Shown one piece after another: positions 33,001 to 45,000 of a DNA stretch of 64,000 bases (positions within the stretch are counted from its first letter, which is position 1; every line of letters starts with the position of its first letter). Where the stretch lies: NCBI RefSeq assembly GCF_016903815.1, contig NZ_CP069974.1; one strand, given 5' to 3'. The stretch is from Escherichia coli. GTDB taxonomy: Bacteria; Pseudomonadota; Gammaproteobacteria; Enterobacterales; Enterobacteriaceae. A program made the position numbers.

Positions 33001-36000
33001 CACCGCTGTCGGGATTATCACGGGCAATCCGGACACCATCCTGCATATTATCAGCCAGCAGGCTCTCTCCGTTACGGCTGCCCTGCAGGGCCACGAACTG
33101 CGCATCCCCGCGGCCTTTCACCCGTCCTTCACCGCTGAATCCCCGCAGCCCGTTTCCGTCATCCGTGGTCAGTGGGTTCAGCCAGATACCGGCGGACCTG
33201 CCGTTACGGTCAAACGCCGGCAGTGCCACATACGGCTGCGGATATTTACGTCCCGGTGCAATAAACCGTGCAGGGCTGTCTCCCCCGGCCAGCCCCGCCT
33301 GACGGAGAACGGCACGGCCTGCCGCCACGTCCCGCAGTTCCCGTGCCGTACTGAACAGCCGCTGCGCATTCATGACCTCCCGGTCCGGTTTCGGCTCAAA
33401 CACATCGTGGGCTGTTCCTTTCTGTACGGCATTGTTAATGGCATCCGTCCAGCCCTGACGGTTATCGGTGTACACCTGCACATGCTGCTTCATACGCGAC
33501 AGGGCCACGTAGGCTGACTCAAAGCCTGCCATCAGTTTCCGGTTACCTTCCGTGCCTTCAAGCGCAATGGCAAAGGTTTCACTTGTCCCCTGCGCACCGT
33601 GGGCGGTGATGGCATAGGCCAGGTCAATATGTTGCTCTGCCCGCTCCTGACCGGGGCGAATCACCCGGGTCTGCTGTCCGTCCGACAGCGTGACACTGTC
33701 ACCGGAAACCGCTGTCACCGTCCAGACGCTGTTGGCCACATAACCGCGCTCCCGGTCACTCTTCGTGAAGCGCATCCGGTCACCGGTTCCCACCCGGATT
33801 TTGTCTGGTGTGTACAGTGTGACACCTTCAGCCACCGCCTCCCGGGGCGAAATCAGCCGCGTGTTACCTTCCGCATCCTCCAGGGTTATCAGCCCGTCAT
33901 CCTTGCTGATACCGGCAATCCGGTGATACACACTATCCACCAGGGCAAGGGCATCCGGGTTATTCTCCCAGGTGGAGAGACGACGCAGTTCTCCGTCACG
34001 TATATTCGCTGTGTTCAGGACAGGCACCATGACCTGCTCTTTGCCCAGCTCACCGGCCTTTTCCCGTGCATCATGAATCATGCTGTTCAGTACGCGCCGG
34101 TCCTCATTCAGGTGCGTGACAATCAGCGTCTGCTCCCGTGCTTCCGGTGTCCTGCCGGTATAGTCGCGGACAATGGCCTCATACAGTGTCATGGGGATAT
34201 CCGGGAAAGCCTCGCCTTTCAGCATCGCCTTCTGCTGCGCTTCTGCCAGTTTCGCTTCCTGGCTGTGACTGAACTCCGTCACGGAGTGCTCCGGTGCCCA
34301 TGCGCCCTCCTGACGGGGAACCTGAGACGGTTTCACACTCTCAAGCCCGGACAGTGCCCTTTCCACATCCCGGTTAATCAGGCTGTATACCGCCTCCCGC
34401 AGTTCCGGCGTCTGACGCACAATCTCCTTCATGATGACCACATCGGCAGCACTGCGCGTCTGCTGCAGACGGAAAGGCTGACCGGGCGCGATGGCCTGCA
34501 GCTGGTCCGTGTCACCACTGGCCACGGCACGACCGCCACCGGCCGCAATCAGGGCGTATGCCCGTGCCATATCGGTATTGCCCACCATTGAGCTCTCATC
34601 GAGCAGGAACAGCGTGTTGCTGAAATCCGGCGTTTCTCCGCTGCGCTGCTGCAGCTGCGTGTCATGCAGAAAGGACGCCAGCGTCTGTGCATCCACGCCG
34701 GCGCTGCGCATCTCACCGACCGCACGGTGCGTGGGCCCCAGCCCCACAACTCGGGGACGCTCACTCGCCGGCAGCATGTTCACGGCTGACATCACCGCCC
34801 GGAACTGTGTGGTCTTACCCACACCGGCATAACCCTGTACCACCGTGAAACGGTCGGACGTTTCCAGTATCATACGGGTGGCGGCACGCTGTCCCGACGT
34901 TAACGTCTCCATGAGTTCGCCGGGTACTCTCTCCATCAACGGCGTGACCGCCTCCTTACCTTCGAGAATATGGCGAAGAATACTTTTTTCGGCACTGTTG
35001 CAAATAGTCGGTGGTGATAAACTTATCATCCCCTTTTGCTGATGGAGCTGCACATGAACCCATTCAAAGGCCGGCATTTTCAGCGTGACATCATTCTGTG
35101 GGCCGTACGCTGGTACTGCAAATACGGCATCAGTTACCGTGAGCTGCAGGAGATGCTGGCTGAACGCGGAGTGAATGTCGATCACTCCACGATTTACCGC
35201 TGGGTTCAGCGTTATGCGCCTGAAATGGAAAAACGGCTGCGCTGGTACTGGCGTAACCCTTCCGATCTTTGCCCGTGGCACATGGATGAAACCTACGTGA
35301 AGGTCAATGGCCGCTGGGCGTATCTGTACCGGGCCGTCGACAGCCGGGGCCGCACTGTCGATTTTTATCTCTCCTCCCGTCGTAACAGCAAAGCTGCATA
35401 CCGGTTTCTGGGTAAAATCCTCAACAACGTGAAGAAGTGGCAGATCCCACGATTCATCAACACGGATAAAGCGCCCGCCTATGGTCGCGCGCTTGCTCTG
35501 CTCAAACGCGAAGGCCGGTGCCCGTCTGACGTTGAACACCGACAGATTAAGTACCGGAACAACGTGATTGAATGCGATCATGGCAAACTGAAACGGATAA
35601 TCAACGCCACGCTGGGATTTAAATCCATGAAGACGGCTTACGCCACCATCAAAGGTATTGAGGTGATGCGTGCACTACGCAAAGGCCAGGCCTCAGCATT
35701 TTATTATGGTGATCCCCTGGGCGAAATGCGCCTGGTAAGCAGAGTTTTTGAAATGTAAGGCCTTTGAATAAGACAAAAGGCTGCCTCATCGCTAACTTTG
35801 CAACAGTGCCTTAACAAGTTGTTTGGGTGTTCGAATTTCAACAGGTAAGTTAGTTGCTAGAACCCATGGCTCCTTTGCCGACGCTGAGTAGATTTTAGGT
35901 GACGGGTGGTGACAATGAGTCCGTGTCGAGCGCTGATTTTTTCGGCCTTTAGAGCGAGATTTATACAATAGAATTTGGCATGAGATTGGATTGCTTTTAG

Positions 36001-42000: not shown

Positions 42001-45000
42001 TGAAGACGGCTTACGCCACCATCAAAGGTATTGAGGTGATGCGTGCACTACGCAAAGGCCAGGCCTCAGCATTTTATTATGGTGATCCCCTGGGCGAAAT
42101 GCGCCTGGTAAGCAGAGTTTTTGAAATGTAAGGCCTTTGAATAAGACAAAAGGCTGCCTCATCGCTAACTTTGCAACAGTGCCCTTTTTTCTGCCTCATA
42201 CGACGCACGGGAAACCAGCAGACCTGTGCCATAGCCTTTTGCCACATCCACATACAGTAAGTCACCGCGTTTTATCTGCGCATTGATTTCCCCTCCCAGT
42301 TCAGTAAAACCGGTTCCTTCTGCAGCAAACGACTTCGCCTCTGTCAGCAGGTCCACCATGCTGAAGGCCAGGTTTTTACTTTCCAGCACAGGAAGGGCCA
42401 GATGAATGGCCTGCTGTGCCGGCGTGTGAAGCCCGGCTTTCTGCAGACTGATAGCGGTTTCCAGCAATGTCTCACCGGCACGCGCCTTTATCTGATCAGA
42501 AACCACCGTAAAGGAGGGATGGCGGGCAAGTTTTTCCGCAGTACGGGGTTCATCCAGCGAGGAATACAGCCGGACATCACGACCACTGCGGGCCAGACCG
42601 TTCAGGGTCGCGTTGTCCATCGCCATCTGTGTGACGGAGGCAAAAACCGTCGCACTGTCGCTGACGGAATGCCCGGGCGTTTCCACCCAGCCGTTCTCCA
42701 GCTTCAGTGCCGTGAATGGTGAATCAGCCACAGGCAGGGTGGCCGGTTCAGCCCGCCCCGGCACAACAACCGTCATCGCATCTTCACTGACGGATGCCAC
42801 CTGCAGGCGGTCACCGCCGGAGACGCGGAGTCCGGGAATTTTCCCTGTCACCCTCAGTCGCTCGCCGTCTGCCACCGGCATTTTTTCCGGCCGGAACAGC
42901 GACCAGCTGCTGTCCAGGGAGGAAATACGCACCACCTGCGTTTCGCCCTGCGCATCCCGCAGGTTCAGGCTGTGACTCTGCGCTGTCACCCGGTCTATCA
43001 CATAGCGGTCATGACTGCGTGTCTCCGGGTTCCACTGCTCCATCACCATCCCCGGTCGGTACATATCCCGCAGATAACGGCTCCGGCTGTCCAGCCAGAC
43101 CGGTGACAGTGCAGTCATGGTCACCTCAGGGTGTCCGAGCACGCCCTGCGTTTTCAGCTCACTGCGAATGGCCTCTGTCAGTATGGCCTGTTCCCGTACC
43201 CCGCTGACCTGTGCCACGCTCTCTTCTCCGGCTTTCACGCTGGCCGCAAAATCTCCGGCCAGCCGGGCATAGCGGACATTACGGTCCGGTTCACTGATGA
43301 TGGTGGCCGGTCGCTGTTCTCCCCCCTGCCAGCGATATGTGTTCACCCCGGCATCCTTCATGGCCATCAGTGCACTGCCTGTACCGGTTCGCTGCCCGCT
43401 GTCGGTTATCAGGACCTGTACGTTATGACGTGCGGCACCATCCAGCAGGGTTAACGTCTCTTTCAGGGAGAGTTTTTCGCCCTGGTCGACGATAACGGTA
43501 CTGCCCGGCGGGAAGGCCATGCCTTCCAGCAACTGACGACGTCCGGTTATCAGTTCACCGGACAGCCGTTCATCCTGCTTCAGGTTCATCTGCGAGCGAC
43601 GGTCAGCAGCGATAATCTGCACCTCCCGCCCCTGCTCCCGGGCCATCATGACCAGTTCAGCCACCCGCTCACGCTGCCCGGCTGCACCGCCCTGCCCGGA
43701 CACAATGGCCAGCGACGGGCGATCCTGTGCCAGAACACTGACGGCATCGCTGTAACCGGCCGTCCGGGGGACACTTTTCTCCGGATGTACGGTCACCCGG
43801 TTCTGTTTCATGATGTCACGACTGAGTGCCCGGACTGACAGCTCATCGAGCACATGAATCCCGGACGTGAACAGCCCCTTCTCACGATCGAGGGGGATAA
43901 GCTGCTCACGGCTGATGGCCTCATCGATACCGGCGCGTGCCCGTTCAATCACACCATTTTCCGGCGGCAGTATGCCGACCGTCCTGGCCAGCACGTCCGT
44001 ATACGTGAACTGCACTTTTCGTTCACTTAATCCGGCAATGGCCTGTGTCACCGCCTGCTGCACATCCGGCCCGTCCTGTGAAGCAGGCCCGGGCGCCTGC
44101 GTGCGGATCTCCGCACGCTGATCCGCCGCGTCACGATATGCCCGGATGTCGAACCCGGTTTCCTTCAGCGTCTGCATCCATTCAGCCATTCTGACTTCAG
44201 GATCGACGTGCTGTTTGGATTTACGCGTATCCAGTGCCGCCACATCCCGGGATTTCAGCGAGGCGTCTTCACCGACGGCCTCCCGGATAGCCTGTGAGCG
44301 TCCGGAGAAGGCTTCCACCGGTACGCCCGGCATCTCCCACATACCGTGCTTACCGACCACTTCGGTTTCATAACCCAGCGCCTCAACGCGCTGACGTAAC
44401 TCACTCTGATATATTTTCCCGAACGCAATCCGGTTCGCGAGCACGTTCTCGGAAAATCCGGTTTTCCCCACTTTGTCACTGCTCAGTGTCTTCCATTCGC
44501 CGTTATGCTGCGTGACATTAGCCACCACCACATGCGTGTGTAACTGTGGGTCCTGATCGCGACTGGTGTCATGGTTAAACAGTGCCATCACCAGATTACC
44601 GGTCAGCACCGTTTCTGACTGTCCGTCCGTCATCACCCGTGTGGAAGCCAGCGCCTCCACCTGACGGACAGCAAAATCCACAGCCTGGTTATGTGCATCA
44701 ATAAGACGTTTATCCCCCCCGAGCATGGCCATCATGGAGACACTTTTGGGGGCGGAGAAGGTCAGGTCGTAGCCGGGACGATGCTTATTACTGCCATCCT
44801 GCATGCGGCTTAAATCCGCCCCGTCCGGCAGCCTGCCCTCCAGAAGACGGGTAAAAACATCCTTATCGACGCTGCCCTGCAGCCCAAGCTGTTCAGCCCC
44901 CTGAACGGAAAAAAGCACGGGTGTTCATGACGTCAAACAGCGTGGCCGCCGCTTTCTCACCGTAGATATCTTCCAGCTGGGCATAGGACTGGATACCAAA

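Follow-up and report, generated by a model that had tools for sequence, protein, structure and literature searches.

A probable IS26-v1 pseudo-compound transposon with aac(3)-IId in the traI pseudogene of an IncFII-type plasmid lineage predicted to be incapable of self-transfer

Introduction

It is textbook knowledge that multiresistance plasmids contain resistance modules bounded by IS26 and flanked by 8-bp duplications. The structure studied here lies in a stretch of 64,000 nucleotides of Escherichia coli contig NZ_CP069974.1 (assembly GCF_016903815.1), hereafter the window, where a 7.2-kb segment with the gentamicin resistance gene aac(3)-IId, enclosed between two copies of the insertion sequence (IS) IS26, interrupts traI, the relaxase gene. 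An earlier note on this DNA had concluded that the segment transposed as a unit into traI and inactivated the relaxase. In the present analysis, it was identified with good confidence as a pseudo-compound transposon formed by the variant IS26-v1, located in a pseudogene of traI, in an IncFII-type lineage of plasmids predicted to be incapable of self-transfer.

Cointegrates of IS26 arise by copy-in, with duplication of the IS and of 8 bp of the target; in an alternative, targeted conservative reaction between two IS26 copies, no duplication is made. Circular translocatable units, consisting of one IS and adjacent DNA, are incorporated by either route, and structures bounded by direct IS26 copies are termed pseudo-compound transposons (PMC7986276, PMC4196232, PMC4894685). 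Both terms were defined by Harmer, Pong and Hall in 2020, as reviewed in PMC7986276. A variant, IS26-v1, differs from IS26 at three nucleotides, two of which give the substitution G184N in the transposase Tnp26 (PMC9412624).

The structure in the window shares with Tn4352, Tn6020, Tn2680 and with translocatable units the direct 820-bp IS copies, the 14-bp repeats and the outer 8-bp duplication. It does not differ in kind from Tn4352-type elements; its passenger is aac(3)-IId/tmrB/DUF3883 with IS10 remnants, and both IS are IS26-v1. Tn10 and Tn5 likewise have two IS copies around resistance genes and an outer target duplication, but their transposase cuts and pastes the whole element from the outer ends, whereas IS6-family elements form cointegrates and need direct repeats (PMC7986276). 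"Transposed as a unit" is the wrong model, borrowed from classical composite transposons. The element is of a known kind, and public records already contain both the module and the junction.

Results and discussion

Boundaries of the insertion in traI

The IS26 terminal repeat GGCACTGTTGCAAA is matched ten times in the window (about 0.01 expected), and the matches pair into five IS26 copies of 820 bp. The copies and the duplicated target are as follows.

5222-6041, + strand: IS26 copy 1 (paired GGCACTGTTGCAAA repeats)
10482-11301, + strand: IS26 copy 2 (paired repeats)
21154-21973, + strand: IS26 copy 3 (paired repeats)
34991-35810, + strand: copy 4, IS26-v1, 820 bp, Tnp26 G184N (terminal repeats, variant sites, NCBIfam IS6 transposase)
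41364-42183, + strand: copy 5, IS26-v1, identical to copy 4
34983-34990: left 8-bp target site duplication, CTTTTTTC (direct read)
42184-42191: right 8-bp target site duplication, CTTTTTTC (direct read)

The features of IS26, an IS6-family element, are all found here, namely a length of 820 bp, 14-bp terminal inverted repeats, a 234-amino-acid DDE transposase and an 8-bp duplication. The transposase of copy 4, a single protein of 234 amino acids, scored 278 bits against the NCBIfam model transpos_IS6 (cutoff 125). Copies 1-3 are identical to one another and to reference IS26. Copies 4 and 5 are also identical to each other, and differ from copies 1-3 by a synonymous G to A change at nucleotide 459 (P132) and by GG to AA at nucleotides 613-614, which turns GGC into AAC and gives G184N; these are the three differences that define IS26-v1. 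Two types of IS26 thus stand side by side in the window, and in the related plasmids described below IS26-v1 is found at the traI junctions, while the internal copies are mostly reference IS26.

Copies 4 and 5, both on the + strand and hence in direct orientation, enclose a passenger of 5,553 bp, which makes the 7,193-bp whole a pseudo-compound transposon. One IS26-v1 together with the 5,553-bp segment would constitute a potential translocatable unit of 6,373 bp.

The boundaries and the perfect duplication reported in the earlier note were confirmed by exact repeats with CTTTTTTC on both flanks. The probability of a chance match is about 1.6e-5 for one flank pair and about 4e-4 across all 25 left-right flank pairs. 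In pC7 (CP059280.1), a plasmid with an intact tra region, the two flanks of the window are adjacent, matching L011 10306-15837 and 15830-18554 with an overlap of exactly 8 bp, and CTTTTTTC is present in a single copy at this empty site. The flanks are likewise adjacent, and the 8-mer single-copy, in CP024863.1. Chance or mis-called boundaries as the source of the duplication were ruled out by the exact terminal repeats, the low probability and the single-copy empty site. As the earlier note had also proposed, the traI frame is contiguous across the insertion: deletion of 34991-42191 in silico, which removes the unit and one repeat, gave an unbroken minus-strand frame, ...SRASYEAEK/SILRHILEG..., that reads to the normal stop at 32537.

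A single insertion at CTTTTTTC left both outermost IS26-v1 ends flanked by the 8-bp duplication. From the established biology of IS26, this insertion would be a replicative copy-in reaction of Tnp26, in which a circular molecule bearing IS26-v1 fuses with the plasmid and the IS is duplicated. Duplication of a single IS predicts identical copies, and the identity of copies 4 and 5 supports this. The duplication corresponds to one copy-in event, but it does not show that the cargo at entry was the 7.2 kb of today, because relatives with both junctions carry 4.9, 24.3 or 51.8 kb between them. As a general caution, a duplication around an IS26-segment-IS26 structure dates one copy-in event and does not identify the inserted DNA.

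State of traI and of the transfer region

The following parts of the transfer region were recognised on either side of the insertion by comparison with pC7 and with the annotation of relatives.

32537-34990, - strand: 3' part of traI, codon 942 (numbered as in pC7) up to the stop codon (translation; helicase Walker A motif GYAGVGKT); relatives annotate it as a TraI domain protein that lacks the N-terminus
42184-44908, - strand: 5' part of traI without the first 100 nucleotides (33 codons), matching pC7 L011 15830-18554, where traI extends to 18654
44903-45074, - strand: internal fragment of traD, 172 bp, joined to the truncated traI by a 6-bp microhomology; in relatives a partial type IV secretion system DNA-binding protein
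45073-45580, - strand: 5' end of traU and 3' end of traW; about 15.1 kb, from the 5' part of traD through traU, is lost between this piece and the traD fragment
45574-47896, - strand: traC without its last 305 nucleotides (the upper coordinate is where a mechanically called open reading frame ends); the deletion also takes trbI and the 5' part of traW

Relative to pC7, three deletions are present, corresponding to L011 18555-19401, 19574-34678 and 35187-36157. The first removed the first 100 nucleotides of traI and the 3' 748 nucleotides of traD, the second about 15.1 kb that spans the 5' part of traD, most of traU and all that lies between, with traG, traH, traF, traN and trbC among the genes absent, and the third the 5' part of traW, the whole of trbI and the last 305 nucleotides of traC. 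The joints, at 44903-44908, 45073-45074 and 45574-45580, contain no IS and show microhomologies of 6, 2 and 7 bp, respectively.

Tyr16/17 and the neighbouring tyrosines are catalytic in the F-family TraI relaxase. As judged by comparison of the N-termini, the codons missing from traI in the window include the start codon and those for Tyr16/17/23/24, and homology to pC7 TraI (MLSFSVVKSAGSAGNYYTDKDNYY...) starts at about residue 34-37. An uninterrupted TraI frame would have about 1,756 codons; in the window, the 7,193-bp unit breaks it after codon 941. A functional MOBF-type TraI is hence not expected, the set of mating-pair formation and coupling genes of a self-transmissible F-type transfer region is incomplete, and the plasmid is predicted to be non-self-transmissible.

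The earlier note held the insertion responsible for the loss of the relaxase. If a functional relaxase had been inactivated in this way, it is the insertion that would have made the plasmid non-conjugative; the split, some 50 codons ahead of the Walker A motif of the helicase, would on its own disable traI. However, traI also lacks its first 33 codons with the start codon and catalytic tyrosines, and traD (bar the 172-bp fragment), traG, traH, traF, traN, trbC and others are gone. The same deletions are found in CP024863.1 (strain AR_0015), in which the CTTTTTTC target site is uninterrupted, with 100% identity over 4,047 nucleotides in a single alignment. They are further shared by every examined member of the lineage that retains the right-hand traI side, and the FII backbone is identical there too. 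Inactivation of a working relaxase by IS26 is considered highly improbable, and this part of the earlier interpretation was abandoned.

Precise excision is not known for IS26. Since CP024863.1 combines the deletions with an uninterrupted site, the parsimonious order would be tra deletions first and IS26 second. Most probably, traI was already dead when IS26 arrived and the plasmid already unable to transfer itself; the insertion would not have cost the plasmid its relaxase, as the traI 5' end and most of the mating-pair and coupling genes had by then been lost. An IS within a gene is no proof that the IS killed the gene, and in this case the transfer region had most probably already decayed. 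The spread of aac(3)-IId and the neighbouring resistance genes would then probably be clonal or by IS26 units, and not by conjugation of this plasmid.

Contents of the unit

The earlier description of the contents, namely aac(3)-II, tmrB, IS10 fragments and a truncated DUF3883-like gene, agreed with family matches and with the annotation of relatives.

35811-36765, - strand: IS10/ISVsa5 remnant, 955 bp; its low-coordinate end is cut by IS26, and the IS10 terminal repeat ends at 36765
36766-37837, - strand: second IS10/ISVsa5 remnant, 1,072 bp; the IS10 terminal repeat ends at 37837
37873-38733, + strand: aac(3)-IId, aminoglycoside (gentamicin) acetyltransferase gene (NCBIfam AAC_3_II and annotation of relatives)
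38746-39288, + strand: tmrB-like AAA family ATPase gene (WP_000587837.1 in the annotation of relatives; NCBIfam matches weak only)
40263-41390, + strand: NOV_C/DUF3883-domain gene (Pfam PF13020, E = 1.8e-21, residues 256-353)

The aac(3)-IId product lies above the curated NCBIfam cutoff (NF033080 AAC_3_II, 541.5 bits against 480), and the allele name AAC(3)-IId (WP_000557454.1) was taken from the annotation of relatives with identical DNA. The gene name tmrB is that of the literature (PMC10591226). The final 27 nucleotides of the NOV_C gene, including the stop codon, lie within IS26, and relatives annotate its product as a DUF3883 / NO VEIN domain protein (WP_014837927.1), the Pfam family NOV_C (PF13020) being the former DUF3883.

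The segment 35811-36765 encodes the N-terminal part of an IS4-family transposase, is annotated as ISVsa5 in relatives, and repeats 36883-37837 with 99.8% identity over 955 bp. The extent of the second remnant was deduced from an open reading frame (36762-37730) that runs on through the 117 bp between the two repeats. A simple tandem duplication was rejected for these remnants, which are 955-bp and 1,072-bp copies of the same IS10 end, arranged head to tail. Their number varies among plasmids, with two in the window and three in CP024863.1 (L016 23163-26261).

The aac(3)-IId module in other plasmids

The 7,193-bp stretch is found with 99.9-100% identity in many plasmids of E. coli, Klebsiella, Enterobacter and Shigella in unrelated contexts, and the aac(3)-IId unit, as judged by these matches, is therefore a circulating, well-known module. 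In the carriers of the whole unit that were checked, namely pAMA1167-NDM-5 (CP024805.1), pEcMAD1 (LR595692.1), KpWEA3 P1 (AP024573.1), pYLMB46a (CP073959.1), CP024863.1, pMB9880_1 (CP103763.1) and p98224 (CP173474.1), IS26-v1 stands on the left and reference IS26 on the right, and the unit is delimited by TTAACAAG and AGCCGACG as in the window. The IS26-v1/aac(3)-IId/IS26 module of IncF, IncHI1 and Klebsiella plasmids, as in pAMA1167-NDM-5, pEcMAD1 and KpWEA3 P1, is 99.9-100% identical to the window in its interior. It differs in that its right copy is reference IS26 and that it lies inside larger resistance regions with no flanking duplication, whereas in the window IS26-v1 occurs twice and the unit stands alone in traI between duplicated target sites.

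The same traI junctions in related plasmids

Each junction was compared with 5,426 complete E. coli genomes (RefSeq). The left traI-IS26 junction was found with 100% identity in six E. coli records: CP020519.1 and CP020496.1 from Boston, pMB9880_1 (CP103763.1) and pMB9272_2 (CP103523.1) from Houston, and p98210 (CP173527.1) and p98224 (CP173474.1) from Alexandria. The right junction is identical in four of the six (CP020519.1, CP020496.1, CP103763.1 and CP173527.1) and is lost in p98224 and pMB9272_2. The junctions are thus identical wherever they are kept, but the cargo differs or the right junction is gone, and none of the six is in the 7.2-kb state of the window. Three further records, ij001, EC_T6 and YA-1, were rejected as carriers of the right junction, since the IS26 insertions in their traI are other ones and the plasmids belong to another F type.

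The distance between the outer IS26 ends is 4,909 bp in both CP020519.1 and CP020496.1, which are a near-identical pair, 24,285 bp in pMB9880_1 and 51,810 bp in p98210, as compared with 7.2 kb in the window. Such differences in length between identical junctions indicate that the cargo at this site was remodelled. The Boston plasmids correspond to the window minus 39080-41363, with IS26-v1 adjoining CAACGAGG inside tmrB, and the sequence of this loss has the pattern expected of an IS26 adjacent deletion. In pMB9880_1, the order is IS26-v1, the unit, IS26, mphA-mrx-mphR, IS6100, IS26, strBA-sul2-repC, an inverted IS26, TnAs3, blaTEM-1 and IS26-v1. The right end of p98210, with blaTEM-1, IS26-v1 and traI, is as in pMB9880_1.

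Isolates MB9272 and MB9880 are only 18 core-gene single-nucleotide polymorphisms apart (bioRxiv 10.1101/2022.05.20.492874), yet pMB9272_2 and pMB9880_1 are completely different to the right of the shared junction, and remodelling at this IS26 is therefore fast. Recombination between IS26 copies, uptake of translocatable units and adjacent deletions by IS26 have thus reshaped the site again and again.

How the present structure arose

As to the claim of the earlier note that the structure transposed as a unit, an IS26-mediated insertion at this point stands, but entry of exactly this 7.2-kb structure is not established, as three histories fit the data.

The structure may have been formed in one step, by a 6,373-bp translocatable unit that was excised from an IS26-v1/segment/IS26 array elsewhere and entered traI by copy-in to give the 7,193-bp form directly, the larger cargoes of the relatives being added later beside the right-hand IS26-v1. 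With its mechanism put right, the idea of the earlier note takes this form, which is rated at somewhat below an even chance. It is slightly favoured by copies 4 and 5 being IS26-v1 without any difference between them, the outcome to be expected when one IS is duplicated. Given that carriers of the whole unit have IS26-v1 on the left and reference IS26 on the right, a unit that took the left copy with it would give IS26-v1 on both sides. Moreover, the arrangement in pMB9880_1, with reference IS26 to the right of the unit and IS26-v1 adjoining traI, is the one expected if a unit joined at the left end of the right-hand IS26-v1. However, a larger array would give the same structure by one IS26-IS26 crossover in the first 458 bp, and identical copies speak only weakly for one-step entry because this interval makes up 56% of the IS length. 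One-step entry would also need a second unit that inserted at one specific IS26 and recreated a circular permutation of the array found in CP024863.1.

That array is the starting point of another history, in which a circle of about 23.5 kb with several IS26 copies entered traI first through its IS26-v1, by copy-in, the 7.2-kb form being left by a later deletion. The order in the circle would be the unit, IS26, mphA-mrx-mphR, IS6100, IS26, strBA-sul2-repC, an inverted IS26, TnAs3, blaTEM-1 and IS26-v1, and trimming would be by recombination of the IS26 to the right of the unit with the IS26-v1 adjoining traI. In CP024863.1, where backbone and deletions are the same as in the window and the site is empty, the array reads IS26-GGATTGAA-mphA ... 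blaTEM-1-TTCAATAT-IS26-v1-TTAACAAG-unit-AGCCGACG-IS26. The cargo of pMB9880_1 is an exact circular permutation of this array, with the new joint AGCCGACG-IS26-GGATTGAA, and the IS26-v1 that lies between TTCAATAT and TTAACAAG in the array is duplicated at CTTTTTTC. The joint blaTEM-1-TTCAATAT-IS26-v1-CTTTTTTC-traI is present in a Houston and an Alexandria plasmid, and one excision and one copy-in account for all three new joints.

Against entry of the large circle, CP024863.1 is a cousin and not the direct donor, its Tn5403 junction and integron region being different from those of pMB9880_1 and the window; pMB9880_1 is itself derived, having lost 52 bp beside the left IS26; and the unit-IS26-mphA joint also occurs in linear form in pAMA1167-NDM-5 and pEcMAD1. 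Comparison further showed that pMB9880_1 does not have, at its usual resistance-region site, what simple excision from a CP024863.1-like array would leave; both regions are further rearranged. On balance, prior entry of the large circle is a real possibility that falls a little short of even odds.

Alternatively, a lone IS26-v1 could have inserted into traI and made the duplication, the aac(3)-IId segment being added later by the targeted conservative reaction of Tnp26 or by homologous recombination. This route to IS26-bounded transposons was shown experimentally (PMC4894685), and cointegrates were 60-fold more frequent when the target plasmid had IS26 (PMC4196232). A simple insertion of IS26-v1 with its own duplication is also known in the lineage: in p98210 (L014 15045-15864) an extra IS26-v1 lies in the aac(3)-IId unit, downstream of tmrB, between 8-bp duplications GATTTTCG, which shows that simple copy-in events of IS26-v1 happened there too. 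However, a lone IS26 at this traI site was found in no record among the 72,556 PLSDB plasmids or the 5,426 complete E. coli genomes, and prior insertion of a lone IS is regarded as unlikely. Thirteen PLSDB records that were "100% covered" by an artificial lone-IS26 construct were discarded, since these are three-piece matches spanning 2.5-3.4 kb with IS26 elsewhere in traI; in CP023854.1, for example, the site is uninterrupted.

It is tentatively suggested, at a level of confidence well short of even, that the lineage forms a natural before-and-after series for a translocatable unit of about 23.5 kb (CP024863.1 before, pMB9880_1/p98210 after, the window trimmed) and that CTTTTTTC is a recurrent target of IS26. 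The latter may be so because plasmids of FCI54 (NZ_JBYGYS010000002.1, L004 12001-13428) and FCI55, from Colombia, have, at exactly this CTTTTTTC position of a divergent traI allele, an IS26 whose transposase is G184N and whose nucleotide 459 is G. This allele differs by 2.2% (13 of 600 flanking bases), the nearest mismatch being 51 bp from the junction, and the coincidence is due either to a separate IS26 insertion into this 8-mer or to recombination of the flanking DNA.

Some observations weigh against the identification of an IS26-v1 pseudo-compound transposon in an already decayed traI. The mechanism is deduced from the structure and from published IS26 biology. The exact 7.2-kb configuration in traI was found in no PLSDB or RefSeq complete E. 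coli record, so that the place of the window in the lineage is not anchored; searches of PLSDB with 9.2-kb and 25-kb stretches likewise gave no identical arrangement, the best match, pMB9880_1, covering the left junction and the unit only. The order of deletions and insertion would be parsimony from a single relative with an empty site, and would fail if CP024863.1 regained the site by recombination with another F plasmid. In addition, the 5'-truncated traI of CP024863.1 is listed by the NCBI pipeline as an intact coding sequence that begins at an alternative start; we infer from the missing Tyr16/17 that a truncated traI of this type is non-functional.

Other features of the window

The erm(B)/IS91 segment that separates IS26 copies 1 and 2 starts and finishes with CAAAATTT, next to copy 1 (6042-6049) and next to copy 2 (10474-10481). 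On sequence grounds, this 8-mer at both inner flanks is the signature of a circular IS26-bearing molecule, its IS flanked by that duplication, that recombined into a resident IS26. The same arrangement around the erm(B)/IS91 segment is present in pCR-0268_2 (L006).

An ISEc12 element (IS21 family) at 26602-29473 lies 291 bp from its position in pC7, and its position agrees with that in CP024863.1 and in the relatives with IS26 in traI. As compared with pMB9880_1, the window also has a 2,342-bp insertion at 57822-60163 with an open reading frame of 555 amino acids (58416-60083), a length, though only the length, that equals that of the group II intron reverse transcriptase ltrA annotated in pMB9272_2.

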